The translations under genes were made by a program, and so were the position numbers. This document shows, piece by piece, positions 2,549-45,264 of a DNA stretch of 64,000 bases. A model generated the notes under the pieces. It saw only the letters and a list, made by a program, of their open reading frames with translations, ran no database searches and was not told the origin of the DNA. Each line of letters opens with the position of its first letter. Position 1 is the stretch's first letter. The stretch comes from Nemertoderma westbladi (Eukaryota > Animalia > Xenacoelomorpha). The stretch covers positions 26,735 through 90,734 of the forward strand of contig JAUCBJ010008895.1 in NCBI GenBank assembly GCA_032718475.1, written 5' to 3'.

Positions 2549-3260
2549 GTACACTGCCATTACAATTTTGAAACGCGTTATAAAATAATAAAAATACCTG
2601 ATAACACAACCATTTTATTTCGTCAATATAATATAGTTTTACTACTTACAGTACATATATGTTTTAATTTGCGCTTCAATTTTATCATCCCCCTCGCTCA
2701 TACAACACCAAATGTTTTGTAATAACGTTTAATATTCATTCAATAATAAAAATAGAGTTTAAGTAAAAAGTAAAGTATCTTTTAATAATGGATAAATTCT
2801 AAAGTAATATATTGTAAATTTTTTGCCTGAGAATGACAGGGGGGGGGGGGGGGGGGGGGGCTTTCGACGCAATAAAAATTAATCCCTCTCCAGCGGAAAT
2901 TTGATGCAAGTAACAGCTGATTACTCTCAAAAATAAAACTGTTACCTGTTCTATTGTGTTTAGTTTATTGTTGGTTAAAATAACGTGCCACTTGCCACTG
3001 TAACCTGCTCCTTTCCCTAAATTGAGAATTTAGCATTGATAGTTAAATTATTTATTTATTAAATAATTTAGCAGCGGGATATTAATTCGCCAAGATGGGA
3101 TTTGCGTCTTTTTTTACCCAGGGAAATAGTAACCCGAAATATCAGTGAGTTTTAATATTTTACTTAGAGGAAAAAAATTTAAATAATGAAACAAATTATT
3201 ATATTTATTATGATTATTTTATATTTATTATTATTTATTATTTATTTATATCCCATTCAG

Positions 3261-3412
3261 ATTCGCATTGAACTCAATTGATAAGAAGTTAATAAAACTG
3301 AAAGCAGAAGCGAATTATTTGTCAATTTATCGTCTTTTATTCTTAAAATCTCTAATGAACGATCATACAAGTCATATAGCAGACTGCTGGAGAATGTTTC
3401 ATTCTATAGTCG
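3261..3412 (+). CDS. Gene A exon d (source of the satellite unit)
   Basis: CCCATTCAG acceptor (phase 2, matches exon c), (R)FALNSIDKKLIKLKAEANYLSIYRLLFLKSLMNDHTSHIADCWRMFHSIV(G), perfect G|GTAAGT donor at 3412/3413 (phase 1). Confidence 0.8.
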
Positions 3413-6400
3413 GTAAGTATAGCAGACTGGCTGGAGAATGTTTCATTCTATAGTCGGTAAGTATAGCAGACTGCTGGAGAATGTTTCATTCTATCGTCGG
3501 TAAGTACAGCAGACTGCTGGAGAATGTTTCATTCTATAGTCGGTAAGTATAGCAGACTGCTGGAGAATGTTTCATTCTATAGTTGATAAGTACAGCAGAC
3601 TGCTGGATAATGTTTCATTCTATAGTCGGTAAGTATAGCAGACTGCTGGAGAATGTTTCATTCTATAGTCGGTAAGTACAGCAGACTGCTGGAGAATGTT
3701 TCATTCTATAGTCGGTAAGTATAGCAGACTGCTGGAGAATGTTTCATTCTATAGTTGATAAGTACAGCAGACTGCTGGATAATGTTTCATTCTATAGTTG
3801 ATAAGTACAGCAGACTGGCTGGAGAATGTTTCATTCTATAGTCGGTAAGTATAGCAGACTGCTGGAGAATGTTTCATTCTATAGTCGGTAAGTATAGCAG
3901 ACTGCTGGAGAATGTTTCATTCTATAGTCGGTAAGTACAGCAGACTGCTGGAGAATGTTTCATTCTATAGTCGGTAAGTATAGCAGACTGCTGGATAATG
4001 TTTCATTCTATATTTAATAAGTACAGCAGACTGCTGGAGAATGTTTCATTCTATAGTCGGTAAGTATAGCAGACTGCTGGAGAATGTTTCATTCTATATT
4101 TAATAAGTACAGCAGACTGCTAGAGAATATTTTATTCTATAGTTGATAAGTGCAGCAGACTGCTGGAGAATGTGTCATTCTATAGTTGATAAGTACAGCA
4201 GACTGGTTGGATAATGTTTCATTCTATAGTCGGTAAGTATAGCAGACTGCTGGAGAATGTTTCATTCTATAGTCGGTAAGTATAGCAGACTGGCTGGAGA
4301 ATGTTTCATTCTATAGTCGGTAAGTATAGCAGACTGCTGGAGAATGTTTCATTCTATAGTCGGTAAGTATAGCAGACTGGCTGGAGAATGTTTCATTCTA
4401 TAGTCGGTAAGTATAGCAGACTGCTGGAGAATGTTTCATTCTATAGTCGGTAAGTACAGCAGACTGCTGGAGAATGTTTCATTCTATAGTCGGTAAGTAT
4501 AGCAGACTGCTGGAGAATGTTTCATTCTATAGTTGATAAGTACAGCAGACTGCTGGATAATGTTTCATTCTATAGTTGATAAGTACAGCAGACTGGCTGG
4601 AGAATGTTTCATTCTATAGTCGGTAAGTATAGCAGACTGCTGGAGAATGTTTCATTCTATAGTCGGTAAGTATAGCAGACTGCTGGAGAATGTTTCATTC
4701 TATAGTCGGTAAGTACAGCAGACTGCTGGAGAATGTTTCATTCTATAGTCGGTAAGTATAGCAGACTGCTGGAGAATGTTTCATTCTATATTTAATAAGT
4801 ACAGCAGACTGCTGGAGAATGTGTCATTCTATAGTTGATAAGTACAGCAGACTGGTTGGATAATGTTTCATTCTATAGTTGATAAGTACATCAGACTGCT
4901 GGAGAATGTTTCATTATATAGTCGGTAAGTATAGCAGACTGCTGGAGAATGTTTCATTCTATATTTAATAAGTACAGCAGACTGCTAGAGAATATTTTAT
5001 TCTATAGTTGATAAGTGCAGCAGACTGCTGGAGAATTTTTCATTCTATAGTCGGTAAGTATAGCAGACTGCTGGAGAATGTTTCATTATATAGTCGGTAA
5101 GTATAGCAGACTGCTGGAGAATGTTTCATTCTATATTTAATAAGTACAGCAGACTGCTAGAGAATATTTTATTCTATAGTTGATAAGTATAGCAGACTGC
5201 TGGAGAATGTGTCATTCTATAGTTGATAAGTACAGCAGACTGGTTGGATAATGTTTCATTCTATAGTTGATAAGTACAGCAGACTGCTGGAGAATGTTTC
5301 ATTATATAGTCGGTAAGTATAGCAGACTGCTGGAGAATGTTTCATTCTATATTTAATAAGTACAGCAGACTGCTAGAGAATATTTTATTCTATAGTTGAT
5401 AAGTATAGCAGACTGCTGGAGAATGTGTCATTCTATAGTTGATAAGTACAGCAGACTGGCTGGATAATGTTTCATTCTATAGTTGTTAAGTACAGCAGAC
5501 TGCTGGAGAATGTTTCATTCTATAGTTGATAAGTACAGCAGACAGCTGGAGAATGTTTCATTATATAGTCGGTAAGTATAGCAGACTGCTGGAGAATGTT
5601 TCATTCTATATTTAATAAGTACAGCAGACTGCTAGAGAATATTTTATTCTATAGTTGATAAGTATAGCAGACTGCTGGAGAATGTGTCATTCTATAGTTG
5701 ATAAGTACAGCAGACTGGTTGGATAATGTTTCATTCTATAGTTGATAAGTACAGCAGACTGCTGGAGAATGTTTCATTCTATAGTCGGTAAGTACAGCAG
5801 ACTGCTGGAGAATGTTTCATTCTATAGTTGATAAGTACAGCAGACTGGTTGGATAATGTTTCATTCTATAGTTGATAAGTACATCAGACTGCTGGATAAT
5901 GTTTCATTCTATAGTCGGTAAGTATAGCAGACTGCTGGAGAATGTTTCATTATATAGTCGGTAAGTATAGCAGACTGCTGGAGAAGGTTTCATTCTATAT
6001 TTAATAAGTACAGCAGACTGCTAGAGAATATTTTATTCTATAGTTGATAAGTGCAGCAGACTGCTGGAGAATGTGTCATTCTATAGTTGATAAGTACAGC
6101 AGACTGGTTGGATAATGTTTCATTCTATAGTTGATAAGTACATCAGACTGCTGGATAATGTTTCATTCTATAGTCGGTAAGTATAGCAGACTGCTGGAGA
6201 ATGTTTCATTATATAGTCGGTAAGTATAGCAGACTGCTGGAGAAGGTTTCATTCTATAGTCGGTAAGTACAGCAGACTGCTGGAGAATGTTTCATTCTAT
6301 AGTCGGTAAGTATAGCAGACTGCTGGATAATGTTTTATTCTATAGTCGGTAAGTATAGCAGACTGGCTGGATAATGTTTTTTTCTATAGTCGGTAAGTAG

Positions 6401-9400
6401 AGCAGACTGCTGGATAATGTTTCATTCTATAGTTGATAAGTACAGCAGACTGGTTGGATAATGTTTCATTCTATAGTTGATAAGTACATCAGACTGCTGG
6501 AGAATGTTTCATTCTATAGTCGGTAAGTATAGCAGACTGCTGGATAATGTTTTATTCTATAGTCGGTAAGTATAGCAGACTGCTGGAGAATGTTTCATTC
6601 TATAGTTGATAAGTACAGCAGACTGGCTGGAGAATGTTACATTCTATAGTCGGTAAGTATAGCAGACTGCTGGATAATATTTTATTCTATAGTCGGTAAG
6701 TATAGCAGACTGGCTGGATAATGTTTTATTCTATAGTCGGTAAGTAGAGCAGACTGCTGGATAATGTTTTATTATATAGTCGGTAAGTATAGCAGACTGG
6801 CTGGATAATGTTTTATTCTATAGTCGGTAAGTAGAGCAGACTGCTGGATAATGTTTTATTCTATAGTCGGTAAGTATAGCAGACTGGCTGGTTAATGTTT
6901 TATTCTATAGTCGGTAAGTAGAGCAGACTGCTGGAGAATGTTTCATTCTATAGTCGGTAAGTATAGCAGACTGCTGGAGAATGTTTCATTCTATAGTTGA
7001 TAAGTGCAGCAGATTGGCTGGAGAATGTGTCATTCTATAGTTGAAAAGTACAGCAGACTGGTTGGATAATGTTTCATTCTATAGTTGATAAGTACATCAG
7101 ACTGCTGGAGAATGTTTCATTCTATAGTCGGTAAGTATAGCAGACTGCTGGAGAAGGTTTCATTCTATAGTTGATAAGTGCAGCAGACTGCTGGAGAATG
7201 TTTCATTCTATAGTCGGTAAGTATAGCAGACTGCTGGATAATGTTTTATTCTATAGTCGGTAAGTATAGCAGACTGCTGGATAATGTTTTATTCTATAGT
7301 CGGTAAGTAGAGCAGACTGCTGGAGAATGTTTCATTCTATAGTCGGTAAGTATAGCAGACTGCTGGAGAATGTGTCATTCTATAGTTGATAAGTACAGCA
7401 GACTGGCTGGATAATGTTTCATTCTATAGTCGGTAATTATAGCAGACTGCTGGATAATGTTTCATTCTATAGTTGATAAGTGCAGCAGACTGCTGGAGAA
7501 TGTTTCATTCTATAGTTGATAAGTACAGCAGACTGGCTGGATAATGTTTCATTCTATAGTCGGTAAGTATAGCAGACTGCTGGATAATGTTTCATTCTAT
7601 AGTTGATAAGTACAGCAGACTGGCTGGATAATGTTTCATTCTATAGTCGGTAAGTATAGCAGACTGCTGGATAATGTTTCATTATATAGTCGGTAAGTAT
7701 AGCAGACTGCTGGAGAATGTTTCATTCTATATTTAATAAGTACAGCAGACTGCTAGAGAATATTTTATTCTATAGTTGATAAGTATAGCAGACTGCTGGA
7801 GAATGTGTCATTCTATAGTTGATAAGTACAGCAGACTGGTTGGATAATGTTTCATTCTATAGTTGATAAGTACAGCAGACTGCTGGAGAATGTTTCATTC
7901 TATAGTCGGTAAGTACAGCAGACTGCTGGAGAATGTTTCATTCTATAGTTGATAAGTACAGCAGACTGGTTGGATAATGTTTCATTCTATAGTTGATAAG
8001 TACATCAGACTGCTGGATAATGTTTCATTCTATAGTCGGTAAGTATAGCAGACTGCTGGAGAATGTTTCATTATATAGTCGGTAAGTATAGCAGACTGCT
8101 GGAGAAGGTTTCATTCTATATTTAATAAGTACAGCAGACTGCTAGAGAATATTTTATTCTATAGTTGATAAGTGCAGCAGACTGCTGGAGAATGTGTCAT
8201 TCTATAGTTGATAAGTACAGCAGACTGGTTGGATAATGTTTCATTCTATAGTTGATAAGTACATCAGACTGCTGGATAATGTTTCATTCTATAGTCGGTA
8301 AGTATAGCAGACTGCTGGAGAATGTTTCATTATATAGTCGGTAAGTATAGCAGACTGCTGGAGAAGGTTTCATTCTATAGTCGGTAAGTACAGCAGACTG
8401 CTGGAGAATGTTTCATTCTATAGTCGGTAAGTATAGCAGACTGCTGGATAATGTTTTATTCTATAGTCGGTAAGTATAGCAGACTGGCTGGATAATGTTT
8501 TTTTCTATAGTCGGTAAGTAGAGCAGACTGCTGGATAATGTTTCATTCTATAGTTGATAAGTACAGCAGACTGGTTGGATAATGTTTCATTCTATAGTTG
8601 ATAAGTACATCAGACTGCTGGAGAATGTTTCATTCTATAGTCGGTAAGTATAGCAGACTGCTGGATAATGTTTTATTCTATAGTCGGTAAGTATAGCAGA
8701 CTGCTGGAGAATGTTTCATTCTATAGTTGATAAGTACAGCAGACTGGCTGGAGAATGTTTCATTCTATAGTCGGTAAGTATAGCAGACTGCTGGATAATG
8801 TTTTATTCTATAGTCGGTAAGTATAGCAGACTGGCTGGATAATGTTTTATTCTATAGTCGGTAAGTAGAGCAGACTGCTGGATAATGTTTTATTCTATAG
8901 TCGGTAAGTATAGCAGACTGGCTGGATAATGTTTTATTCTATAGTCGGTAAGTAGAGCAGACTGCTGGATAATGTTTTATTCTATAGTCGGTAAGTATAG
9001 CAGACTGGCTGGTTAATGTTTTATTCTATAGTCGGTAAGTAGAGCAGACTGCTGGAGAATGTTTCATTCTATAGTCGGTAAGTATAGCAGACTGCTGGAG
9101 AATGTTTCATTCTATAGTTGATAAGTGCAGCAGATTGGCTGGAGAATGTGTCATTCTATAGTTGAAAAGTACAGCAGACTGGTTGGATAATGTTTCATTC
9201 TATAGTTGATAAGTACATCAGACTGCTGGAGAATGTTTCATTCTATAGTCGGTAAGTATAGCAGACTGCTGGAGAAGGTTTCATTCTATAGTTGATAAGT
9301 GCAGCAGACTGCTGGAGAATGTTTCATTCTATAGTCGGTAAGTATAGCAGACTGCTGGATAATGTTTTATTCTATAGTCGGTAAGTATAGCAGACTGCTG

Positions 9401-12400
9401 GATAATGTTTTATTCTATAGTCGGTAAGTAGAGCAGACTGCTGGAGAATGTTTCATTCTATAGTCGGTAAGTATAGCAGACTGCTGGAGAATGTGTCATT
9501 CTATAGTTGATAAGTACAGCAGACTGGCTGGATAATGTTTCATTCTATAGTCGGTAATTATAGCAGACTGCTGGATAATGTTTCATTCTATAGTTGATAA
9601 GTGCAGCAGACTGCTGGAGAATGTTTCATTCTATAGTTGATAAGTACAGCAGACTGGCTGGATAATGTTTCATTCTATAGTCGGTAAGTATAGCAGACTG
9701 CTGGATAATGTTTCATTCTATAGTTGATAAGTACAGCAGACTGGCTGGATAATGTTTCATTCTATAGTCGGTAAGTATAGCAGACTGCTGGATAATGTTT
9801 CATTCTATAGTTGATAAGTGCAGCAGACTGCTGGAGAATGTTTCATTCTATAGTTGATAAGTACAGCAGACTGGCTGGATAATGTTTCATTCTATAGTTG
9901 TTAAGTACAGCAGACTGCTGGAGAATGTTTCATTCTATAGTTGATAAGTACAGCAGACTGCTGGAGAATGTTTCATTATATAGTCGGTAAGTATAGCAGA
10001 CTGCTGGAGAATGTTTCATTCTATATTTAATAAGTACAGCAGACTGCTAGAGAATATTTTATTCTATAGTTGATAAGTATAGCAGACTGCTGGAGAATGT
10101 GTCATTCTATAGTTGATAAGTACAGCAGACTGGTTGGATAATGTTTCATTCTATAGTTGATAAGTACAGCAGACTGCTGGAGAATGTTTCATTCTATAGT
10201 CGGTAAGTACAGCAGACTGCTGGAGAATGTTTCATTCTATAGTTGATAAGTACAGCAGACTGGTTGGATAATGTTTCATTCTATAGTTGATAAGTACATC
10301 AGACTGCTGGATAATGTTTCATTCTATAGTCGGTAAGTATAGCAGACTGCTGGAGAATGTTTCATTATATAGTCGGTAAGTATAGCAGACTGCTGGAGAA
10401 GGTTTCATTCTATATTTAATAAGTACAGCAGACTGCTAGAGAATTTTTTATTCTATAGTTGATAAGTGCAGCAGACTGCTGGAGAATGTGTCATTCTATA
10501 GTTGATAAGTACAGCAGACTGGTTGGATAATGTTTCATTCTATAGTTGATAAGTACATCAGACTGCTGGATAATGTTTCATTCTATAGTCGGTAAGTATA
10601 GCAGACTGCTGGAGAATGTTTCATTATATAGTCGGTAAGTATAGCAGACTGCTGGAGAAGGTTTCATTCTATAGTCGGTAAGTACAGCAGACTGCTGGAT
10701 AATGTTTTATTCTATAGTCGGTAAGTATAGCAGACTGGCTGGATAATGTTTTTTTCTATAGTCGGTAAGTAGAGCAGACTGCTGGATAATGTTTCATTCT
10801 ATAGTTGATAAGTACAGCAGACTGGTTGGATAATGTTTCATTCTATAGTTGATAAGTACATCAGACTGCTGGAGAATGTTTCATTCTATAGTCGGTAAGT
10901 ATAGCAGACTGCTGGATAATGTTTTATTCTATAGTCGGTAAGTATAGCAGACTGCTGGAGAATGTTTCATTCTATAGTTGATAAGTACAGCGGACTGGCT
11001 GGAGAATGTTTCATTCTATAGTCGGTAAGTATAGCAGACTGCTGGATAATGTTTTATTCTATAGTCGGTAAGTATAGCAGACTGGCTGGATAATGTTTTA
11101 TTCTATAGTCGGTAAGTAGAGCAGACTGCTGGATAATGTTTTATTCTATAGTCGGTAAGTATAACAGACTGGCTGGATAATGTTTTATTCTATAGTCGGT
11201 AAGTAGAGCAGACTGCTGGATAATGTTTTATTCTATAGTCGGTAAGTATAGCAGACTGGCTGGTTAATGTTTTATTCTATAGTCGGTAAGTAGAGCAGAC
11301 TGCTGGAGAATGTTTCATTCTATAGTCGGTAAGTATAGCAGACTGCTGGAGAATGTTTCATTCTATAGTTGATAAGTGCAGCAGATTGGCTGGAGAATGT
11401 GTCATTCTATAGTTGAAAAGTACAGCAGACTGGTTGGATAATGTTTCATTCTATAGTTGATAAGTACATCAGACTGCTGGAGAATGTTTCATTCTATAGT
11501 CGGTAAGTATAGCAGACTGCTGGAGAAGGTTTCATTCTATAGTTGATAAGTGCAGCAGACTGCTGGAGAATGTTTCATTCTATAGTCGGTAAGTATAGCA
11601 GACTGCTGGATAATGTTTTATTCTATAGTCGGTAAGTATAGCAGACTGCTGGATAATGTTTTATTCTATAGTCGGTAAGTAGAGCAGACTGCTGGAGAAT
11701 GTTTCATTCTATAGTCGGTAAGTATAGCAGACTGCTGGAGAATGTGTCATTCTATAGTTGATAAGTACAGCAGACTGGCTGGATAATGTTTCATTCTATA
11801 GTCGGTAATTATAGCAGACTGCTGGATAATGTTTCATTCTATAGTTGATAAGTGCAGCAGACTGCTGGAGAATGTTTCATTCTATAGTTGATAAGTACAG
11901 CAGACTGGCTGGATAATGTTTCATTCTATAGTCGGTAAGTATAGCAGACTGCTGGATAATGTTTCATTCTATAGTTGATAAGTACAGCAGACTGGCTGGA
12001 TAATGTTTCATTCTATAGTCGGTAAGTATAGCAGACTGCTGGATAATGTTTCATTCTATAGTTGATAAGTGCAGCAGACTGCTGGAGAATGTTTCATTCT
12101 ATAGTTGATAAGTACAGCAGACTGGCTGGATAATGTTTCATTCTATAGTCGGTAAGTATAGCAGACTGCTGGATAATGTTTCATTCTATAGTCGGTAAGT
12201 ATAGCAGACTGCTGGATAATGTTTCATTCTATAGTCGGTAAGTATAGCAGACTGGCTGGTTAATGTTTTATTCTATAGTCGGTAAGTAGAGCAGACTGCT
12301 GGAGAATGTTTCATTCTATAGTCGGTAAGTATAGCATACTGCTGGAGAATGTTTCATTCTATAGTTGATAAGTGCAGCAGATTGGCTGGAGAATGTGTCA

Positions 12401-18400: not shown

Positions 18401-21400
18401 GACTGCTGGAGAAGGTTTCATTCTATAGTTGATAAGTGCAGCAGACTGCTGGAGAATGTTTCATTCTATAGTCGGTAAGTATAGCAGACTGCTGGATAAT
18501 GTTTTATTCTATAGTCGGTAAGTATAGCAGACTGCTGGATAATGTTTTATTCTATAGTCGGTAAGTAGAGCAGACTGCTGGAGAATGTTTCATTCTATAG
18601 TCGGTAAGTATAGCAGACTGCTGGAGAATGTGTCATTCTATAGTTGATAAGTACAGCAGACTGGCTGGATAATGTTTCATTCTATAGTCGGTAATTATAG
18701 CAGACTGCTGGATAATGTTTCATTCTATAGTTGATAAGTGCAGCAGACTGCTGGAGAATGTTTCATTCTATAGTTGATAAGTACAGCAGACTGGCTGGAT
18801 AATGTTTCATTCTATAGTCGGTAAGTATAGCAGACTGCTGGATAATGTTTCATTCTATAGTTGATAAGTACAGCAGACTGGCTGGATAATGTTTCATTCT
18901 ATAGTCGGTAAGTATAGCAGACTGCTGGATAATGTTTCATTCTATAGTTGATAAGTGCAGCAGACTGCTGGAGAATGTTTCATTCTATAGTTGATAAGTA
19001 CAGCAGACTGGCTGGATAATGTTTCATTCTATAGTTGTTAAGTACAGCAGACTGCTGGAGAATGTTTCATTCTATAGTTGATAAGTACAGCAGACTGCTG
19101 GAGAATGTTTCATTATATAGTCGGTAAGTATAGCAGACTGCTGGAGAATGTTTCATTCTATATTTAATAAGTACAGCAGACTGCTAGAGAATATTTTATT
19201 CTATAGTTGATAAGTATAGCAGACTGCTGGAGAATGTGTCATTCTATAGTTGATAAGTACAGCAGACTGGTTGGATAATGTTTCATTCTATAGTTGATAA
19301 GTACAGCAGACTGCTGGAGAATGTTTCATTCTATAGTCGGTAAGTACAGCAGACTGCTGGAGAATGTTTCATTCTATAGTTGATAAGTACAGCAGACTGG
19401 TTGGATAATGTTTCATTCTATAGTTGATAAGTACATCAGACTGCTGGATAATGTTTCATTCTATAGTCGGTAAGTATAGCAGACTGCTGGAGAATGTTTC
19501 ATTATATAGTCGGTAAGTATAGCAGACTGCTGGAGAAGGTTTCATTCTATATTTAATAAGTACAGCAGACTGCTAGAGAATATTTTATTCTATAGTTGAT
19601 AAGTGCAGCAGACTGCTGGAGAATGTGTCATTCTATAGTTGATAAGTACAGCAGACTGGTTGGATAATGTTTCATTCTATAGTTGATAAGTACATCAGAC
19701 TGCTGGATAATGTTTCATTCTATAGTCGGTAAGTATAGCAGACTGCTGGAGAATGTTTCATTATATAGTCGGTAAGTATAGCAGACTGCTGGAGAAGGTT
19801 TCATTCTATAGTCGGTAAGTACAGCAGACTGCTGGATAATGTTTTATTCTATAGTCGGTAAGTATAGCAGACTGGCTGGATAATGTTTTTTTCTATAGTC
19901 GGTAAGTAGAGCAGACTGCTGGATAATGTTTCATTCTATAGTTGATAAGTACAGCAGACTGGTTGGATAATGTTTCATTCTATAGTTGATAAGTACATCA
20001 GACTGCTGGAGAATGTTTCATTCTATAGTAGGTAAGTATAGCAGACTGCTGGATAATGTTTTATTCTATAGTCGGTAAGTATAGCAGACTGCTGGAGAAT
20101 GTTTCATTCTATAGTTGATAAGTACAGCAGACTGGCTGGAGAATGTTTCATTCTATAGTCGGTAAGTATAGCAGACTGCTGGATAATGTTTTATTCTATA
20201 GTCGGTAAGTATAGCAGACTGGCTGGATAATGTTTTATTCTATAGTCGGTAAGTAGAGCAGACTGCTGGATAATGTTTTATTCTATAGTCGGTAAGTATA
20301 GCAGACTGGCTGGATAATGTTTTATTCTATAGTCGGTAAGTAGAGCAGACTGCTGGATAATGTTTTATTCTATAGTCGGTAAGTATAGCAGACTGGCTGG
20401 TTAATGTTTTATTCTATAGTCGGTAAGTAGAGCAGACTGCTGGAGAATGTTTCATTCTATAGTCGGTAAGTATAGCAGACTGCTGGAGAATGTTTCATTC
20501 TATAGTTGATAAGTGCAGCAGATTGGCTGGAGAATGTGTCATTCTATAGTTGAAAAGTACAGCAGACTGGTTGGATAATGTTTCATTCTATAGTTGATAA
20601 GTACATCAGACTGCTGGAGAATGTGTCATTCTATAGTTGATAAGTACAGCAGACTGGTTGGATAATGTTTCATTCTATAGTTGATAAGTACATCAGACTG
20701 CTGGATAATGTTTCATTCTATAGTCGGTAAGTATAGCAGACTGCTGGAGAATGTTTCATTATATAGTCGGTAAGTATAGCAGACTGCTGGAGAAGGTTTC
20801 ATTCTATAGTCGGTAAGTACAGCAGACTGCTGGATAATGTTTTATTCTATAGTCGGTAAGTATAGCAGACTGGCTGGATAATGTTTTTTTCTATAGTCGG
20901 TAAGTAGAGCAGACTGCTGGATAATGTTTCATTCTATAGTTGATAAGTACAGCAGACTGGTTGGATAATGTTTCATTCTATAGTTGATAAGTACATCAGA
21001 CTGCTGGAGAATGTTTCATTCTATAGTAGGTAAGTATAGCAGACTGCTGGATAATGTTTTATTCTATAGTCGGTAAGTATAGCAGACTGCTGGAGAATGT
21101 TTCATTCTATAGTTGATAAGTACAGCAGACTGGCTGGAGAATGTTTCATTCTATAGTCGGTAAGTATAGCAGACTGCTGGATAATGTTTTATTCTATAGT
21201 CGGTAAGTATAGCAGACTGGCTGGATAATGTTTTATTCTATAGTCGGTAAGTAGAGCAGACTGCTGGATAATGTTTTATTCTATAGTCGGTAAGTATAGC
21301 AGACTGGCTGGATAATGTTTTATTCTATAGTCGGTAAGTAGAGCAGACTGCTGGATAATGTTTTATTCTATAGTCGGTAAGTATAGCAGACTGGCTGGTT

Positions 21401-27400: not shown

Positions 27401-30400
27401 GTAGAGCAGACTGCTGGAGAATGTTTCATTCTATAGTCGGTAAGTATAGCAGACTGTTGGAGAATGTGTCATTCTATAGTTGATAAGTACAGCAGACTGG
27501 CTGGATAATGTTTCATTCTATAGTCGGTAATTATAGCAGACTGCTGGATAATGTTTCATTCTATAGTTGATAAGTGCAGCAGACTGCTGGAGAATGTTTC
27601 ATTCTATAGTTGATAAGTACAGCAGACTGGCTGGATAATGTTTCATTCTATAGTCGGTAAGTATAGCAGACTGCTGGATAATGTTTCATTCTATAGTCAG
27701 TAAGTATATCAGACTGCTGGATAATGTTTCATTCTATAGTTGATAAGTACAGCAGACTGGCTGGATAATGTTTCATTCTATAGTCGGTAAGTATAGCAGA
27801 CTGCTGGATAATGTTTCATTCTATAGTTGATAAGTGCAGCAGACTGCTGGAGAATGTTCCATTCTATAGTTGATAAGTACAGCAGACTGGCTGGATAATG
27901 TTTCATTCTATAGTCGGTAAGTATAGCAGACTGCTGGATAATGTTTCATTCTATAGTTGATAAGTGCAGCAGACTGCTGGAGAATGTTTCATTCTATAGT
28001 TGATAAGTACAGCAGACTGGCTGGATAATGTTTCATTCTATAGTCGGTAAGTATAGCAGACTGCTGGATAATGTTTCATTCTATAGTTGATAAGTACAGC
28101 AGACTGGCTGGATAATGTTTCATTCTATAGTCGGTAAGTATAGCAGACTGCTGGATAATGTTTCATTCTATAGTTGATAAGTGCAGCAGACTGCTGGAGA
28201 ATGTTTCATTCTATAGTTGATAAGTACAGCAGACTGGCTGGATAATGTTTCATTCTATAGTCAGTAAGTATAGCAGACTGCTGGATAATGTTTTATTCTA
28301 CAGTCGGTAAGTATAGCAGACTGCTGGATAATGTTTTATTCTATAGTCGGTAAGTAGATCAGACTGCTGGAGAATGTTTCATTCTATAGTCGGTAAGTAT
28401 AGCAGACTGCTGGAGAATGTGTCATTCTATAGTTGATAAGTACAGCAGACTGGCTGGATAATGTTTCATTCTATAGTCGGTAATTATAGCAGACTGCTGG
28501 ATAATGTTTCATTCTATAGTTGATAAGTACATCAGACTGCTGGAGAATGTTTCATTCTATAGTCGGTAAGTATAGCAGACTGCTGCTGAAGGTTTCATTC
28601 TATAGTTGATAAGTGCAGCAGACTGCTGGAGAATGTTTCATTCTATAGTCGGGAAGTATAGCAGACTGCTGGATAATGTTTTATTCTATAGTCGGTAAGT
28701 ATAGCAGACTGCTGGATAATGTTTTATTCTATAGTCGGTAAGTAGAGCAGACTGCTGGAGAATGTTTCATTCTATAGTCGGTAAGTATAGCAGACTGTTG
28801 GAGAATGTGTCATTCTATAGTTGATAAGTACAGCAGACTGGCTGGATAATGATTCATTCTATATTCGGTAAGTATAGCAGACTGCTGGATAATGTTTCAT
28901 TCTATAGTTGATAAGTACAGCAGACTGGCTGGATAATGTTTCATTCTATAGTCGGTAAGTATAGCAGACTGCTGGATAATGTTTCATTCTATAGTTGATA
29001 AGTGCAGCAGACTGCTGGAGAATGTTTCATTCTATAGTTGATAAGTACAGCAGACTGGCTGGATAATGTTTCATTCTATAGTCGGTAAGTATAGCAGACT
29101 GCTGGATAATGTTTCATTCTATAGTCGGTAAGTATAGCAGACTGCTGTATAATGTTTCATTCTATAGTCGGTAAGTATAGCAGACTTGCTGGTTAATGTT
29201 TTATTCTATAGTCGGTAAGTAGAGCAGACTGCTGGAGAATGTTTCATTCTATAGTCGGTAAGTATAGCAGACTGCTGGAGAATGTTTCATTCTATAGTTG
29301 ATAAGTGCAGCAGATTGGCTGGAGAATGTGTCATTCTATAGTTGAAAAGTACAGCAGACTGGTTGGATAATGTTTTATTCTATAGTTGATAAGTACATCA
29401 GACTGCTGGAGAATGTTTCATTCTATAGTCGGTAAGTATAGCAGACTGCTGGAGAAGGTTTCATTCTATAGTTGATAAGTGCAGCAGACTGCTGGAGAAT
29501 GTTTCATTCTATAGTCGGTAAGTATAGCAGACTGCTGGATAATGTTTTATTCTATAGTCGGTAAGTATAGCAGACTGCTGGATAATGTTTTATTCTATAG
29601 TCGGTAAGTAGAGCAGACTGCTGGAGAATGTTTCATTCTATAGTCGGTAAGTATAGCAGACTGTTGGAGAATGTGTCATTCTATAGTTGATAAGTACAGC
29701 AGACTGGCTGGATAATGTTTCATTCTATAGTCGGTAATTATAGCAGACTGCTGGATAATGTTTCATTCTATAGTTGATAAGTGCAGCAGACTGCTGGAGA
29801 ATGTTTCATTCTATAGTTGATAAGTACAGCAGACTGGCTGGATAATGTTTCATTCTATAGTCGGTAAGTATAGCAGACTGCTGGATAATGTTTCATTCTA
29901 TAGTCGGTAAGTATATCAGACTGCTGGATAATGTTTCATTCTATAGTTGATAAGTACAGCAGACTGGCTGGATAATGTTTCATTCTATAGTCGGTAAGTA
30001 TAGCAGACTGCTGGATAATGTTTCATTCTATAGTTGATAAGTGCAGCAGACTGCTGGAGAATGTTCCATTCTATAGTTGATAAGTACAGCAGACTGGCTG
30101 GATAATGTTTCATTCTATAGTCGGTAAGTATAGCAGACTGCTGGATAATGTTTCATTCTATAGTTGATAAGTGCAGCAGACTGCTGGAGAATGTTTCATT
30201 CTATAGTTGATAAGTACAGCAGACTGGCTGGATAATGTTTCATTCTATAGTCGGTAAGTATAGCAGACTGCTGGATAATGTTTCATTCTATAGTTGATAA
30301 GTACAGCAGACTGGCTGGATAATGTTTCATTCTATAGTCGGTAAGTATAGCAGACTGCTGGATAATGTTTCATTCTATAGTTGATAAGTGCAGCAGACTG

Positions 30401-33400
30401 CTGGAGAATGTTTCATTCTATAGTTGATAAGTACAGCAGACTGGCTGGATAATGTTTCATTCTATAGTCAGTAAGTATAGCAGACTGCTGGATAATGTTT
30501 TATTCTACAGTCGGTAAGTATAGCAGACTGCTGGATAATGTTTTATTCTATAGTCGGTAAGTAGAGCAGACTGCTGGAGAATGTTTCATTCTATAGTCGG
30601 TAAGTATAGCAGACTGCTGGAGAATGTGTCATTCTATAGTTGATAAGTACAGCAGACTGGCTGGATAATGTTTCATTCTATAGTCGGTAATTATAGCAGA
30701 CTGCTGGATAATGTTTCATTCTATAGTTGATAAGTGCAGCAGACTGCTGGAGAATGTTTCATTCTATAGTTGATAAGTACAGCAGACTGGCTGGATAATG
30801 TTTCATTCTATAGTCGGTAAGTATAGCAGACTGCTGGATAATGTTTCTTTCTATAGTTGATAAGTACAGCAGACTGGCTGGATAATGTTTCATTCTATAG
30901 TCGGTAAGTATAGCAGACTGCTGGATAATGTTTCATTCTATAGTTGATAAGTGCAGCAGACTGCTGGAGAATGTTTCATTCTATAGTTGATAAGTACAGC
31001 AGACTGGCTGGATAATGTTTCATTCTATAGTCGGTAAGTATAGCAGACTGCTGGATAATTTTTCATTCTATAGTCGGTAAGTATAGCAGACTGCTGGATA
31101 ATGTTTCATTCTATAGTTGATAAGTACAGCAGACTGGCTGGATAATGTTTCATTCTATAGTCGGTAAGTATAGCAGACTGCTGGATAATGTTTCATTCTA
31201 TAGTTGATAAGTGCAGCAGACTGCTGGAGAATGTTTCATTCTATAGTTGATAAGTACAGCAGACTGGCTGGATAATGTTTCATTCTATAGTCGGTAAGTA
31301 TAGCAGACTGCTGGATAATGTTTCATTCTATAGTTGATAAGTGCAGCAGACTGCTGGAGTATGTTTCATTCTATAGTTGATAAGTACAGCAGACTGGCTG
31401 GATAATGTTTCATTCTATAGTCGGTAAGTATAGCAGACTGCTGGATAATGTTTCATTCTATAGTTGATAAGTACAGAAGACTGCTGGATAATGTTTCATT
31501 CTATACTTGATAAGTGCAGCAGACTGCTGGAGAATGTTTCATTCTATAGTTGATAAGTACAGCAGACTGGCTGGATAATGTTTCATTCTATAGTCGGTAA
31601 GTATAGCAGACTGCTGGATAATGTTTCATTCTATAGTTGATAAGTGCAGCAGACTGCTGGAGAATGTTTCATTCTATAGTTGATAAGTACAGCAGACTGG
31701 CTGGATAATGTTTCATTCTATAGTCGGTAAGTATAGCAGACTGCTGGATAATGTTTCATTCTATAGTTGATAAGTGCAGCAGACTGCTGGAGAATGTTTC
31801 ATTCTATAGTTGCTAAGTACAGCAGACTGGCTGGATAATGTTTCATTCTATAGTCGGTAAGTATAGCAGACTGCTGGATAATGTTTCATTCTATAGTTGA
31901 TAAGTGCAGCAGACTGCTGGAGAATGTTTCATTCTATAGTTGATAAGTACAGCAGACTGGCTGGATAATGTTTCATTCTATAGTCGGTAAGTATAGCAGA
32001 CTGCTGGATAATGTTTCATTCTATAGTTGATAAGTGCAGCAGACTGCTGGAGAATGTTTCATTCTATAGTCGGTAAGTATAGCAGACTGCTGGATAATGT
32101 TTCATTCTATAGTTGATAAGTACAGAAGACTGCTGGAGAATGTTTCATTCTATAGTTGATAAGTGCAGCAGACTGCTGGAGAATGTTTCATTCTATAGTT
32201 GATAAGTACAGCAGACTGGCTGGATAATGTTTCATTCTATAGTCGGTAAGTATAGCAGACTGCTGGATAATGTTTCATTCTATAGTTGATAAGTGCAGCA
32301 GACTGCTGGAGAATGTTTCATTCTATAGTTGATAAGTACAGCAGACTGGCTGGATAATGTTTCATTCTATAGTCGGTAAGTATAGCAGACTGCTGGATAA
32401 TGTTTCATTCTATAGTTGATAAGTGCAGCAGACTGCTGGAGAATGTTTCATTCTATAGTTGATAAGTACAGCAGACTGGCTGGATAATGTTTCATTCTAT
32501 AGTCGGTAAGTATAGCAGACTGCTGGATAATTTTTCATTCTATAGTTGATAAGTACAGAAGACTGCTGAATAATGTTTCATTCTATACTTGATAAGTGCA
32601 GCAGACTGCTGGAGAATGTTTCATTCTATAGTTGATAAGTACAGCAGACTGGCTGGATAATGTTTCATTCTATAGTCGGTAAGTATAGCAGACTGCTGGA
32701 TAATGTTTCTTTCTATAGTTGATAAGTGCAGCAGACTGCTGGAGAATGTTTCATTCTATAGTTGATAAGTACAGCAGACTGGCTGGATAATGTTTCATTC
32801 TATAGTCGGTAAGTATAGCAGACTGCTGGATAATGTTTCATTCTATAGTTGATAAGTGCAGCAGACTGCTGGAGAATGTTTCATTCTATAGTTGATAAGT
32901 ACAGCAGACTGGCTGGATAATGTTTCATTCTATAGTCGGTAAGTATAGCAGACTGCTGGATAATGTTTCATTCTATAGTTGATAAGTGCAGCAGACTGCT
33001 GGAGAATGTTTCATTCTATAGTTGATAAGTACAGCAGACTGGCTGGATAATGTTTCATTCTATAGTCGGTAAGTATAGCAGACTGCTGGATAATGTTTCA
33101 TTCTATAGTTGATAAGTACAGAAGACTGCTGGAGAATGTTTCATTCTATAGTTGATAAGTACAGCAGATTGCTGGAGAATGTTTCATTCTATAGTTGATA
33201 AGTACAGCAGACTGCTGGAGAATGTTTCATTCTATAGTTGATAAGTACAGCAGACTGCTGGAGAATGTTTCATTCTATAGTTGATAAGTGCAGCAGATTG
33301 CTGGAGAATGTTTCATTCTATAGTTGATAAGTACAGCAGACTGCTGGAGAATGTTTCATTCTATAGTTGATAAGTACAGCAGACTGCTGCAGAATGTTTC

Positions 33401-36400
33401 ATTATATAGTTGATAAGTACTGTACAGCAGACTGCTGGAGAATGTTTCATTCTATAGTTGATAAGTGGCGCAGATTGCTGGAGAATGTTTCATTCTATAG
33501 TTGATAAGTACAGCAGACTGCTGGAGAATGTTTCATTCTATAGTTGATAAGTACAGCAGACTGCTGGAGAATGTTTCATTCTATAGTTGATAAGTGCAGC
33601 AGATTGCTGGAGAATGTTTCATTCTATAGTTGATAAGTACAGCAGACTGCTGGAGAATGTTTCATTCTATAGTTGATAAGTGCAGCAGACTGCTGGAGAA
33701 TGTTTCATTCTATAGTTGATAAGTACAGCAGACTGGCTGGATAATGTTTCATTCTATAGTCGGTAAGTATAGCAGACTGCTGGATAATGTTTCATTCTAT
33801 AGTTGATAAGTACAGCAGACTGGCTGGATAATGTTTCATTCTATAGTCGGTAAGTATAGCAGACTGCTGGATAATGTTTCATTCTATAGTTGATAAGTGC
33901 AGCAGACTGCTGGAGAATGTTTCATTCTATAGTTGATAAGTACAGCAGACTGGCTGGATAATGTTTCATTCTATAGTCGGTAAGTATAGCAGACTGCTGG
34001 ATAATGTTTCATTCTATAGTTGATAAGTGCAGCAGACTGCTGGAGAATGTTTCATTCTATAGTTGATAAGTACATCAGACTGGCTGGATAATGTTTCATT
34101 CTATAGTCGGTAAGTATAGCAGACTGCTGGATAATGTTTCATTCTATAGTTGATAAGTACAGAAGACTGCTGGATAATGTTTCATTCTATACTTGATAAG
34201 TGCAGCAGACTGCTGGAGAATGTTTCATTCTATAGTTGATAAGTACAGCAGACTGGCTGGATAATGTTTCATTCTATAGTCGGTAAGTATAGCAGACTGC
34301 TGGATAATGTTTCATTCTATAGTTGATAAATGCAGCAGACTGCTGGAGAATGTTTCATTCTATAGTTGATAAGTACAGCAGACTGGCTGGATAATGTTTC
34401 ATTCTATAGTCGGTAAGTATAGCAGACTGCTGGATAATGTTTCATTCTATAGTTGATAAGTGCAGCAGACTGCTGGAGAATGTTTCATTCTATAGTTGAT
34501 AAGTACAGCAGACTGGCTGGATAATGTTTCATTCTATAGTCGGTAAGTATAGCAGACTGCTGGATAATGTTTCATTCTATAGTTGATAAGTGCAGCAGAC
34601 TGCTGGAGAATGTTTCATTCTATAGTTGATAAGTACAGCAGACTGGCTGGATAATGTTTCATTCTATAGTCGGTAAGTATAGCAGACTGCTGGATAATGT
34701 TTCATTCTATAGTTGATAAGTGCAGCAGACTGCTGGAGAATGTTTCATTCTATAGTTGATAAGTACAGCAGACTGGCTGGATAATGTATCATTCTATAGT
34801 CGGTAAGTATAGCAGACTGCTGGATAATGTTTCATTCTATAGTTGATAAGTGCAGCAGACTGCTGGAGAATGTTTCATTCTATAGTTGATAAGTACAGCA
34901 GACTGGCTGGATAATGTTTCATTCTATAATCGGTAAGTATAGCAGACTGCTGGATAATGTTTCATTCTATAGTTGATAAGTGCAGCAGACTGCTGGAGAA
35001 TGTTTCATTCTATAGTTGATAAGTACAGCAGACTGGCTGGATAATGTTTCATTCTATAGTCGGTAAGTATAGCAGACTGCTGGATAATGTTTCATTCTAT
35101 AGTTGATAAGTACAGAAGACTGCTGGAGAATGTTTCATTCTATAGTTGATAAGTGCATCAGACTGCTGGAGAATGTTTCATTCTATAGTTGATAAGTACA
35201 GCAGACTGGCTGGATAATGTTTCATTCTATAGTCGGTAAGTATAGCAGACTGCTGGATAATGTTTCATTCTATAGTTGATAAGTGCAGCAGACTGCTGGA
35301 GAATGTTTCATTCTATAGTTGATAAGTACAGCAGACTGGCTGGATAATGTTTCATTCTATAGTCGGTAAGTATAGCAGACTGCTGGATAATGTTTCATTC
35401 TATAGTTGATAAGTGCAGCAGACTGCTGGAGAATGTTTCATTCTATAGTTGATAAGTACAGCAGACTGGCTGGATAATGTTTCATTCTATAGTTGATAAG
35501 TGCAGCAGACTGCTGGAGAATGTTTCATTCTATAGTTGATAAGTACAGCAGACTGGCTGGATAATGTTTCATTCTATAGTCGGTAAGTATAGCAGACTGC
35601 TGGATAATGTTTCATTCTATAGTTGATAAGTGCAGCAGACTGCTGGAGAATGTTTCATTCTATAGTTGATAAGTACAGCAGACTGGCTGGATAATGTTTC
35701 ATTCTATAGTCGGTAAGTATAGCAGACTGCTGGATAATGTTTCATTCTATAGTTGATAAGTACAGAAGACTGCTGGATAATGTTTCATTCTATACTTGAT
35801 AAGTGCAGCAGACTGCTGGAGAATGTTTCATTCTATAGTTGATAAGTACAGCAGACTGGCTGGATAATGTTTCATTCTATAGTCGGTAAGTATAGCAGAC
35901 TGCTGGATAATGTTTCATTCTATAGTTGATAAATGCAGCAGACTGCTGGAGAATGTTTCATTCTATAGTTGATAAGTACAGCAGACTGGCTGGATAATGT
36001 TTCATTCTATAGTCGGTAAGTATAGCAGACTGCTGGATAATGTTTCATTCTATAGTTGATAAGTACAGAAGACTGCTGGAGAATGTTTCATTCTATAGTT
36101 GATAAGTACAGCAGATTGCTGGAGAATGTTTCATTCTATAGTTGATAAGTACAGCAGACTGCTGGAGAATGTTTCATTCTATAGTTGATAAGTACAGCAG
36201 ACTGCTGGAGAATGTTTCATTCTATAGTTGATAAGTGCAGCAGATTGCTGGAGAATGTTTCATTCTATAGTTGATAAGTACAGCAGACTGCTGGAGAATG
36301 TTTCATTCTATAGTTGATAAGTACAGCAGACTGCTGCAGAATGTTTCATTATATAGTTGATAAGTACTGTACAGCAGACTGCTGGAGAATGTTTCATTCT

Positions 36401-38734
36401 ATAGTTGATAAGTGGCGCAGATTGCTGGAGAATGTTTCATTCTATAGTTGATAAGTACAGCAGACTGCTGGAGAATGTTTCATTCTATAGTTGATAAGTA
36501 CAGCAGACTGGCTGGATAACGTTTCATTCTATAGTCGGTAAGTATAGCAGACTGCTGGATAATGTTTCATTCTATAGTTGATAAGTACAGCAGACTGGCT
36601 GGATAATGTTTCATTCTATAGTCGGTAAGTATAGCAGACTGCTGGATAATGTTTCATTCTATAGTTGATAAGTGCAGCAGACTGCTGGAGAATGTTTCAT
36701 TCTATAGTTGATAAGTACAGCAGACTGGCTGGATAATGTTTCATTCTATAGTCGGTAAGTATAGCAGACTGCTGGATAATGTTTCATTCTATAGTTGATA
36801 AATGCAGCAGACTGCTGGAGAATGTTTCATTCTATAGTTGATAAGTACAGCAGACTGGCTGGATAATGTTTCATTCTATAGTCGGTAAGTATAGCAGACT
36901 GCTGGATAATGTTTCATTCTATAGTTGATAAGTGCAGCAGACTGCTGGAGAATGTTTCATTCTATAGTTGATAAGTACAGCAGACTGGCTGGATAATGTT
37001 TCATTCTATAGTCGGTAAGTATAGCAGACTGCTGGATAATGTTTCATTCTATAGTTGATAAGTGCAGCAGACTGCTGGAGAATGTTTCATTCTATAGTTG
37101 ATAAGTACAGCAGACTGGCTGGATAATGTTTCATTCTATAGTCGGTAAGTATAGCAGACTGCTGGATAATGTTTCATTCTATAGTTGATAAGTGCAGCAG
37201 ACTGCTGGAGAATGTTTCATTCTATAGTTGATAAGTACAGCAGACTGGCTGGATAATGTTTCATTCTATAGTCGGTAAGTATAGCAGACTGCTGGATAAT
37301 GTTTCATTCTATAGTTGATAAGTGCAGCAGACTGCTGGAGAATGTTTCATTCTATAGTTGATAAGTACAGCAGACTGGCTGTATAATGTTTCATTCTATA
37401 GTCGGTAAGTATAGCAGACTGCTGGATAATGTTTCATTCTATAGTTGATAAGTACAGAAGACTGCTGGATAATGTTTCATTCTATACTTGATAAGTGCAG
37501 CAGACTGCTGGAGAATGTTTCATTCTATAGTTGATAAGTACAGCAGACTGGCTGGATAATGTTTCATTCTATAGTCGGTAACTATAGCAGACTGCTGGAT
37601 AATGTTTCTTTCTATAGTTGATAAGTGCAGCAGACTGCTGGAGAATGTTTCATTCTATAGTTGATAAGTACAGCAGACTGGCTGGATAATGTTTCATTCT
37701 ATAATCGGTAAGTATAGCAGACTGCTGGAGAATGTTTCATTCTATAGTTGATAAGTGCAGCAGACTGCTGGAGAATGTTTCATTCTATAGTTGATAAGTA
37801 CAGCAGACTGGCAGGATAATGTTTCATTCTATAGTCGGTAAGTATAGCAGACTGCTGGATAATGTTTCATTCTATAGTTGATAAGTACAGCAGACTGCTG
37901 GAGAATGTTTCATTCTATAGTTGATAAGTGCAGCAGATTGCTGGAGAATGTTTCATTCTATAGTTGATAAGTACAGCAGAATGCTGGAGAATGTTTCATT
38001 CTATAATTGATAAGTACAGCAGACTGCTGGAGAATGTTTCATTATATAGTTGATAAGTACTGTACAGCAGACTGCTGGAGAATGTTTCATTCTATAGTTG
38101 ATAAGTGCCGCAGATTGCTGGAGAATATTTCATTCTATAGTTGATAAGTACAGCAGACTGCTGGAGAATGTTTCATTCTATAGTTAATAAGTACAGCAGA
38201 CTGCTGGAGAATGTTTCATTCTATAGTTGATAAGTGCAGCAGATTGCTGGAGAATGTTTCATTCTATAGTTGATAAGTACAGCAGACTGCTGGAGAATGT
38301 TTCATTCTATAGTTGATAAGTGCAGCAGACTGCTGGAGAATGTTTCATTCTATAGTTGATAAGTACAGCAGACTGGCTGGATAATGTTTCATTCTATAGT
38401 CGGTAAGTATAGCAGACTGCTGGATAATGTTTCATTCTATAGTTGATAAGTACAGCAGACTGCTGGAGAATGTTTCATTCTATAGTTGATAAGTACAGCA
38501 GACTGGCTGGATAATGTTTCATTCTATAGTCGGTAAGTATAGCAGACTGCTGGATAATGTTTCATTCTATAGTTGATAAGTACAGCAGACTGCTGGAGAA
38601 TGTTTCATTCTATAGTTGATAAGTACAGCAGACTGGCTGGATAATGTTTCATTCTATAGTCGGTAAGTATAGCAGACTGCTGGATAATGTTTCATTCTAT
38701 AGTTGATAAGTACAGCAGACTGCTGGAGAATGTT
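3376..38734 (+). repeat. 35.4-kb tandem satellite, 43/44-bp unit, ~820 copies, intronic
   Basis: Consensus ATAGCAGACTGCTGGAGAATGTTTCATTCTATAGTCGGTAAGT, with variants TTGATAAGTAC/TGC, GACTGGCTGG (+1 nt) and GGATAAT. Copy number is estimated from length divided by ~43.3. Confidence 0.99.
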
Positions 38735-39100
38735 AAAGAATGTTTAACAACTCAATCGCAAATAGAGCGAAACAAATTATTTGCCACCAGCGAGGATTGA
38801 GCCGTGTCTGCCGATACACAGGCTAAGGCTAAGTTATAGAGTATTTATTGGAAGATTCGGGTTCGATCCCAACATGTGGTGAATTATTTTTTTCGCACCA
38901 GTTGTTGATCATCCAACATTTGTTGAGATGACTTAATAATTAATTTATATAAAGTTATATTTATTATTTTAATATTTCTATCAAACAATAACTCAAATAC
39001 ACTACACAATTAAACATTAAATTTTTATTTTAAAACAATATATTTATTGTTTCATTAACTTATAACGTACACAAACATTACACAACTTTGTGTTTCGCAG

Positions 39101-39289
39101 GTCGTTTGGAATATTTAAACACGTTAAACAGAAGTTTACAAGATCTAGTTGAGTTTCAGTTGACCATGATTGAATATGGGTTAGGTAATGATAGTCCTCT
39201 AGAAGGAATCAGTTTGGGCAAAATGACCACAGCTTATCGCCAGCAATACGATCTCATAATTAATTCATCACCGTGTTTATCACCTACAG
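39101..39289 (+). CDS. Gene A exon e (first exon after the satellite intron)
   Basis: TGTTTCGCAG acceptor, phase 1 matching exon d, (G)RLEYLNTLNRSLQDLVEFQL...SPCLSPT, CAG|GTAATT donor, phase 1. Confidence 0.8.
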
Positions 39290-40169
39290 GTAATTTATTA
39301 ATCATTTATTTGAATTTATTTATATAAAACATGAAAGGCAATAACTTTAGAATCTTATAGTGCAGCCACAGGGTCAGAAACAAATTTGCATTCTTTAATT
39401 CCGCTAAAAATTATTTCAATATTTAGGTTAAATGCAAAAGATGAAGGTATTCGAACTCTCCAACATGTCCAATGAAAAATACAACATTCAGTCATTTTGT
39501 ACCTAAATATGGCGAATAAGGTGTATCCAATCGAATTGTTAAATTACCAAGCTTTTTATGAATATTATACCAGCATAGCACGTAGGTTTACCAAAGATTC
39601 AATGTACATTTCTACAGAAAGTGGGGCCTTCGCGCAGCACATTTGATCCGATTTGTTATGTCAATTTACCCATCGATATCGGCAGACTGGGTAATTAAAC
39701 CCTCATATATGTGCAGAGAGGATTATAAACATTAGTACCAAATGGCAGAAGGTTGTCTAGCAGCTAACTGATGAGCTGCACACGGACCAGTGTCAACTCA
39801 AAGACGCAGACTGCGTTAAAGTACATATTGGTTACAATAATTCACCAGACCAGCTTTCAAACACACAAAGTTAAAACTACAACAAAATACAATAATATAA
39901 TGGTCTAACAACAACAAAATCATTAATTTTAATTTAATGACCCACCCTCATAACACTGCCAGCTTGCAACGTCCTACATTGTAACTCATACTACGTGGCT
40001 CGCCCCACAAATGGTTACATTCACAAGATACACATGCATTCATACACACGCCTCTATCCACATAGAAACTAAAATGTTCCTATTTATAGGTTTTGGTGTA
40101 TTTGCACGTTTGTTAAAATTATCCAAATTGTTCATTATTATAATCATAAATAATATTGTCCCGTTGCAG

Positions 40170-40516
40170 CTTTCTTCGAATGGTTCCGTTTAAAGATGTC
40201 GGAATGCATCGAGCGAGACGAGGCGACGGCGAACCTGTACCTGGTCGTCGACCCGTCGACCGTGACGAACCTCCGGGCCATAGAGACGGCAACCCGTCAG
40301 CTCGCGGGGGCGCTGTCCGCTGATATAGTCGGCTGCAGTCCGGATGTATCATCGGTGCTCGCGAGTCTGGTGGTACCCCGGAGCGAGAGGGTTCGGGTGC
40401 TGTCTGGGGGCGACAGACGCACCGACTCGCGGAGGCCCCCGGAGAAAAAACAACAGAGACGCCGTCTAGCGGTCGCAAATGGAACTACTAAACGGGATCC
40501 CCTAGCAGATATATAA
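40170..40516 (+). CDS. Gene A terminal exon f
   Basis: CCGTTGCAG acceptor, phase 1, (A)FFEWFRLKMSECIERDE...DPLADI*. GC-rich; AATAAA at ~40618. The six exons sum to 2328 nt = 776 codons with no internal stop. Confidence 0.72.

Positions 40517-43697: not shown

Positions 43698-45264
<1,567 letters not shown>

Follow-up and report, generated by a model that had tools for sequence, protein, structure and literature searches.

In a 64,000-nt stretch of Nemertoderma westbladi DNA (assembly GCA_032718475.1, contig JAUCBJ010008895.1, positions 26,735 to 90,734; hereafter the window), one gene carries an intron filled with copies of the gene's own exon end and splice donor. This 43-nt piece is repeated 816 times between two exons that we call d and e, and a single splicing event that pairs the first donor with the acceptor of exon e quite probably removes the whole intron of 35.7 kb. 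The array begins within exon d, exons d and e belong to one gene, and a spliced product was found that uses the first donor without any extra base. The best reading is that of a boundary-spanning repeat of the kind described in human F7 and ABCA7 and in the 'mirage' repeats of amphioxus, which has grown to satellite size and is spliced from its first donor.

An exon end repeated with its splice donor

Tandem Repeats Finder reported a single array at 3378-38734, with a period of 43, 816.5 copies and 90% matches. Cutting the sequence unit by unit from 3376 yielded 816 units, of which 580 are 43 nt long, 233 are 44 nt and three are 48 nt, and a partial one ending at 38734. This is close to the approximately 820 copies given in a preliminary description of this DNA. 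As that description had stated, unit 1 (3376-3418) is made of the last 37 nt of exon d (3376-3412) followed by GTAAGT, and it spans the exon-intron boundary. GT was present at the donor position in 409 of the 816 units. The donor had the form TCG/GTAAGT (the slash marking the splice position) in 382 units, which bears out the earlier estimate that about half of the copies keep it, and TTG/ATAAGT in 363. The two changes that define the latter, dead-donor class are almost fully linked (T and A in 400 units, C and G in 408), and because of this linkage the class descends from one old variant that was amplified, and not from many separate losses. Selection against decoy donors was considered and found no support, the dead-donor class being a single linked double change.

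The 11 letters from -3 to +8 were identical in 304 sites (true donor counted), while all 43 nt were identical in just nine of the 816 units (unit 1 counted), all within units 1-31. Units 1-30 differ from unit 1 by 1.8 mismatches on average and the last 200 units by 3.6, and GT was kept in 21 of the former versus 58 of the latter. Higher-order blocks of about 49-56 and 103-108 units occupy the middle of the array, a 3-unit rhythm is seen in its 3' third, and exact internal duplications reach 2,368 nt. There are 101 unit types, all in one phasing, and 55 of the 129 possible single substitutions of the unit are represented in the array. Elsewhere in the window the unit has no copy, even with up to seven differences allowed, and neither AATAAA nor ATTAAA occurs on the sense strand of the array.

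The array stops in the middle of a unit and is followed by 366 unique nt that contain the true acceptor; because of this ending within a unit, we take the old start of the intron to be lost. A 9-nt piece of the unit recurs directly behind the array end and may be a trace of the rearrangement that removed this old start. The unit folds better than its shuffled versions (z of -2.6 and -3.1, with 2 and 3 of 200 shuffles equalling it) and is able to form two small hairpins; the array end (38725-38750) falls in the loop of the second one. The unit of a small boundary array in the neighbouring actin gene (described below) folds no better than shuffles (z of +1.0). Hairpins are therefore not needed as a cause of boundary repeats, the actin unit doing without them; they may at most favour expansion. 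In RNA folding, pairing between units was modest (z of -2.5), and we do not claim a stable hiding of the later donors.

The host gene and its conservation

Exons z, a, b, c, d, e and g (Table 1) join into a single open frame, 802 residues long, which continues beyond the start of the window. The intron carrying the array measures 35,688 nt, versus 58-880 nt for the five other introns of the gene in the window. Exon d ends in phase 1 and joins exon e in frame; the earlier proposal of such a join, in phase 1 on both sides, agrees with the gene model, the homologues and the spliced contig described below. The early TAG that had been predicted for reading through past exon d is indeed there (Table 1), and for every one of the 408 later donors a stop would interrupt the frame if that donor were joined to exon e. 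The true donor is the best match for pairing with U1 (9/11) among the six donors of the gene in the window, as scored against the consensus. A 20-nt candidate exon at 39427-39446 was discarded for breaking the frame, and an acceptor at 1824 was dropped from the exon model. A run of about 22 G lies at 2839-2860, inside the intron before exon d, and one of about 15 C at 53993-54007.

A full HMMER search with exon c retrieved 71 homologues at E≤0.001, many of them 1,100-1,300 residues long; a word-based search for longer exon c homologues found none among 282 candidates. Twenty homologues were looked up by name, and every cluster consisted of uncharacterised invertebrate proteins, from a hemichordate, amphioxus, a tunicate, echinoderms, molluscs, a brachiopod, an annelid, a flatworm and cnidarians. 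Exons z, a, c, d, e and g match these homologous proteins in order, and the identity over exon d is up to 52%. The 18-residue block across the d-e junction has letters in 42 of the 44 homologues of at least 450 residues and is absent from the other two. It is exactly 18 residues long, as in our model, in 37 of these 42 (the other five being cut or misaligned), and it differs at two positions in the clam protein P0012. Since these 37 homologues keep the block continuous, which was the alignment check proposed beforehand, the comparison identifies exons d and e as neighbours in one gene.

The exon part of the unit encodes a conserved motif, with W aligned in 33, R in 29, H in 31 and S in 37 of the 44 long homologues, and conserved in proteins from a sea anemone, a flatworm, molluscs, echinoderms, a hemichordate and amphioxus. 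Because the part of exon d that seeded the array codes for this motif, the array descends from the exon of the host gene and not the reverse.

The protein belongs to an invertebrate family without a name, of about 1,200 residues, with signs of internal duplication (homologue P0009). Pfam contained no family for six exon pieces or for 10 homologues, the leads given for this family by a language-model atlas were all under 0.9, and Foldseek returned no match at E≤0.001, its weak rows including OAS2, TENT5B and CdnE. The predicted structure of the annelid homologue has a pLDDT (predicted local distance difference test) of 81.5, and its C-terminal half matches the Megavirus nucleotidyltransferase Mg662 (Z 19.7, root-mean-square deviation 3.5, 279 residues aligned). 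This predicted resemblance is a likeness in fold, which shows no function, and the finding reported here is independent of it.

A spliced product that uses the first donor

The left flank of the array is present in four sequencing runs from three studies, whose contigs were placed on 3256-3420. X1 and X3 derive from samples S1 and S2, of two studies, and X4 from sample S3. In X4, a single contig of 1,103 nt (depth 25.4) covers exon d end to end and joins it to exon c on one side and to exon e on the other. The d-e join sits at the first donor, with zero added letters, and is the 3412^39101 junction for which the preliminary description had suggested searching. Compared with the window, the loose ends of the contig correspond to the end of exon c and to exon e from 39103. 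The 614 letters past the join would run through exon e and then exon g to 40596, a short way ahead of the AATAAA at 40618; the first 30 of them are visible, and the end at 40596 is thus a consistency check. The run search listed no RNA run with the flank, a gap that carries no weight as evidence. X4 is likely RNA, though listed as 'DNA?', because it contains two exact intron removals and its word share (0.41) is near the exon share (0.51).

The tandem unit was found in the DNA runs X1 and X3 with summed depths of about 13,700 and 15,300, which are not copy numbers. One junction variant made up 1,779 of the summed depth of 15,254 in X3 (0.12) and 121 of the 816 units of the array (0.15). Two junction variants of X1 are absent from the array, with at most 37 of the summed depth of about 13,700, and may be errors. 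The unique part of exon d is uncovered in X1 and X3, X5 shows no cover anywhere on the stretch, and X4 has no unit-bearing contig; since such records can be omitted, we did not use them as evidence.

Probable choice of the first donor and proposed growth of the array

The array would have started as a tandem duplication by slippage and grown by unequal exchange, of single units to begin with and later of blocks of 1-4.5 kb. Copies would drift, while the exon-anchored unit is held by coding selection, so that the most exon-like copies would be found at the 5' end. The first donor would be favoured by being the earliest transcribed, by its position 152 nt behind the acceptor of exon d and by being the best match to the consensus. 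Use of any later donor would give a transcript with an early stop, which makes it a likely target of degradation. As the sense strand has no poly(A) signals, transcription could pass through the array.

The downstream donors of human F7, although identical and functional, offer no competition to the first, the choice being made in the 5'-to-3' direction (PMC1557585). Such a rule would account for the X4 product. This known first-donor rule is most likely the mechanism at work here, and the array itself is most likely neutral DNA that is tolerated rather than a device of control.

Several points weigh against one-step removal of a neutral array from its first donor. The same final product would result from one-step removal and from stepwise removal that leaves no trace, and an acceptor-like AG, with a pyrimidine share like that of true acceptors, is kept in most units. 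The RNA nature of X4 is deduced for a run listed as 'DNA?'. The spliced contig comes from S3 and the array was seen in S1 and S2, so that the S3 allele need not carry a 35-kb array, and X1 or X3 may be the source of the present assembly. A single contig of a single study shows the junction, and since rare variants are lost in contigs, a minor use of later donors would go unseen. Lastly, long ABCA7 alleles lower expression and raise exon skipping (PMC5954066), so 'neutral' is not a safe word.

Alternative explanations

Most units contain an acceptor-like TAG located 3 nt before the donor, behind a pyrimidine-rich run. The AG is kept in 789 of the 816 units, and AG and GT together in 404; the pyrimidine share before it is 0.73, versus 0.64-0.73 for the true acceptors of the gene. 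In formal terms the array can thus be read as alternating mini-introns of 40 nt and microexons of 3 nt, and 403 possible microexons would be in frame and stop-free, adding one residue each. In two units the motif TAGGTAAGTAT, cut after TAG, juxtaposes acceptor and donor. These are the only two of the 816 units with YAG/GTAAG, the form of recursive splice sites (PMC6110457), and both lie within 1.3 kb of the midpoint of the intron; a pyrimidine run immediately in front is lacking at 28 other AGGT. The intron could thus be removed stepwise by way of sites within the array itself, either by recursive splicing at the two TAG/GTAAGT units or as nested pieces of at least 40 nt, from a donor to the TAG of a later unit, ahead of the last d-e join, and this would leave the same final junction. 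Against it, steps through ordinary units from the 5' end would each leave a 3-nt trace, and the X4 junction has none; the same TAG within exon d is unused in the X4 contig; and the AG-free stretch at the AG of the unit is just 15 nt, versus at least 27 for five true acceptors. Because both copies of the motif lie in a 1,016-nt exact duplication, they appear to stem from one mutation, a single substitution later duplicated, and with 55 of the 129 substitutions present no selection is needed to account for it. The preliminary description had offered choice of the first donor and removal in steps as a pair of alternatives. The pair was fair, the product fits the choice of the first donor, and we regard traceless steps as unlikely. 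The fuller picture, in which each unit is a mini-intron plus a microexon and the array an exon-born satellite with self-made ratchet sites, its intron being removed stepwise near the middle, is equally doubtful; if true, it would show recursive splice sites and new introns arising from a repeated exon boundary.

One-step removal from the first donor also has to be set against explanations that concern the array itself. The repeat could be real and its length or place wrong, a shorter array having been expanded in assembly or satellite units pulled in from elsewhere. The exact internal duplications of 1-2.4 kb could have arisen in this way, and the length of the array is that of the assembly, summed contig depths not being copy numbers. 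Yet a collapse or a loop would hardly produce 101 unit types that share one phasing and change steadily from the 5' to the 3' side, the two flanks are parts of one gene in the correct order, depths in the thousands in two studies reveal very many copies, and the share of the junction variant is alike in X3 and in the array. Such an artefact is very unlikely in our view. The array might instead be kept by selection as a regulator, acting as a sink for U1, as a delay of transcription or as a dial that feeds a portion of the transcripts to decay via the later donors. It holds 303 further copies of the gene's strongest donor, its sense strand is free of AATAAA and ATTAAA, and the expression of ABCA7 drops with the length of its variable number tandem repeat (VNTR; PMC5954066). 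However, half of the copies lost their GT by one linked double change and the donors thin out toward the 3' end; that poly(A) signals are missing reflects a single 43-nt unit and not many independent trials; and the small like array of the actin gene points to a mutational habit. We consider selected regulation highly improbable. To an outside satellite that landed in the intron, its first unit becoming the exon end, we give practically no credence: it is favoured by the satellite-like structure and nothing further, whereas no unit copy exists elsewhere in the window and the conservation of the peptide encoded by the 37 exon letters refutes an outside origin.

Comparison with known systems

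For human F7, 6-16, CBS, LAMIN B2 and PDGF, arrays of 5-25 units have been reported in which the first unit lies across an exon-intron boundary (PMC1557585). The present array resembles this type in its boundary-spanning first unit, in the repetition of the donor within the intron and in the use of the most upstream donor. It differs in that the unit of F7 (a 37-bp VNTR in intron 7) is mostly intron (4 exon and 33 intron nt), whereas here it is mostly exon (37 and 6 nt), and in having 816 units, half of them with a dead donor, and higher-order blocks. The 25-bp VNTR of ABCA7 intron 18 is closer in size, its largest reported allele being 10,678 bp or about 427 units (PMC5954066). It also consists of hundreds of units directly behind an exon, with the donor GT starting the unit and later donors leading to an early stop. 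The array described here (35.4 kb, 816 units) has about twice as many copies and 3.3 times the length of that allele. Furthermore, the ABCA7 repeat is described as starting at the donor, whereas the present unit consists mainly of copied, conserved coding sequence and contains an acceptor-like site. Use of the second-unit donor was seen in ABCA7, where expression falls with VNTR length (PMC5954066, PMC13747324), and not in the one X4 contig.

Amphioxus 'mirage' repeats, found in Adh3 and globin genes, are likewise invertebrate boundary duplications that affect several genes per genome and leave normal splicing undisturbed (PMC3087553); the several genes are here the host gene and the adjacent actin gene. 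Those of the globin genes have 2-6 units, and the edges of the cluster escape homogenisation (PMC3087553); here the 5' edge of the array is closest to the exon. Recursive splicing in Drosophila shares with the present case a long intron, juxtaposed AG/GT (in two units here) and a final product like that of one-step removal (PMC6110457), but in most units here AG and GT are 3 nt apart, and the two juxtaposed sites are candidates. The gigantic introns of Drosophila kl-3 and kl-5 are another instance of a satellite-swollen intron in a conserved gene (PMC11207136, PMC6508621). They reach hundreds of kilobases to megabases, lie on the Y and belong to genes expressed in spermatocytes, whereas the present intron of 35,688 nt is below the gigantic class; the available parts of these two papers describe no donor-built units. 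Intron gain by tandem genomic duplication (the Rogers model, PMC3443670) was rejected, as the acceptor lies in the 366-nt unique tail, outside the repeat.

The preliminary description had stated that no satellite-scale array made from a splice donor was known. The size is new, and the array exceeds the published range (5-25 units, and about 427 in ABCA7), but the claim of novelty was overstated in view of the arrays cited above (PMC1557585; PMC5954066, with about 427 units and 10.7 kb). Our literature search, which covered few subscription papers, found no boundary array of this size. The array is new in three respects: its size, its higher-order structure and the acceptor-like site that the unit contains.

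Other features of the window

An actin gene lies 3 kb downstream of the host gene, with its ATG at 43749 and one intron at 43872-44259. The end of its first coding exon is repeated together with the donor as a 79-nt unit (Table 1), giving four CAG/GTTAGT donors predicted at 43872, 43951, 44030 and 44109. The presence of two such arrays within 64 kb suggests that boundary arrays may be a habit of this genome, as they are in amphioxus. A 36-nt repeat at 57113-58179 (+ strand, 29.6 copies) contains a G/GTAGGG word and directly follows a short open frame beginning near 57023; it could be either another boundary array, the third in the window, or a minisatellite without relation to an exon end.

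Table 1. Coordinates of the host gene, its array and the actin boundary array in the window
Feature	Position	Strand	Evidence or remark
Exon z, upstream coding, runs off window start	1-786	+	Open frame; homology (P0003 454-713); joins exon a in frame
Exon a	1346-1606	+	AG 1344-1345; GT 1607; in-frame model; homology
Exon b, 81 nt	1817-1897	+	Splice sites and open frame; no blastp match of its own; weakest exon of the model
Exon c	1956-2548	+	71 homologues at E≤0.001; 3' end joined to exon d in X4 contig
Exon d, 152 nt; last 37 nt are exon part of unit 1	3261-3412	+	Homology; X4 contig
Tandem array, 816 units of 43/44 nt	3376-38734	+	Tandem Repeats Finder; segmentation
Authentic 5' splice site GTAAGT, first of 409 GT copies	3413-3418	+	X4 contig departs from genome here
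First in-frame stop (TAG) on read-through; also acceptor-like site, 3 nt before next donor	3451-3453	+	
Variant unit TAGGTAAGTAT, juxtaposed acceptor and donor, possible ratchet point	20029-20039	+	
Second TAGGTAAGTAT copy, 998 nt from the first	21027-21037	+	Inside 1,016-nt exact duplication
Unique 3' intron tail with authentic acceptor (CAG 39098-39100)	38735-39100	+	
Exon e	39101-39289	+	Homology; letters from 39103 are loose end of X4 contig
Exon g, last coding, with stop	40170-40516	+	In-frame model; homology to C-termini of P0001, P0003 and others
Actin boundary array, 79-nt unit (52 exon and 27 intron nt), 4.5 copies	43820-44172	+	End of first coding exon plus donor

Between the host gene and the actin gene, a single-frame tetraspanin gene (41735-42679, + strand; PF00335, E 3e-15) has a long N-terminal extension. 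Farther downstream, 54990-55718 (+) encodes a single-frame membrane protein with a weak Collectrin match under the Pfam cut-off. Charged, repeat-rich frames that include a 33-nt repeat at 59970-60179, together with a frame that has a weak zinc-knuckle match (58993-60501, +, and 61681-63087, -), are likely remains of retrotransposon gag genes. An open frame at 53075-53581 (-), which had no Pfam hit, resembles the endonuclease end of a Penelope-like retroelement.

What the array offers

The array, with 408 further GT copies over 35 kb behind the real donor, is the largest of its kind found by our literature search. The first-donor rule, for which human F7 provided a test with 5-9 copies (PMC1557585), is taken here to a natural extreme, and positions 3412, 20032 and 21030 are the exact places that separate one-step from stepwise removal. 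Every letter of the conserved coding exon that seeded this satellite is known, which makes it possible to tell in which direction the copies changed along the array.

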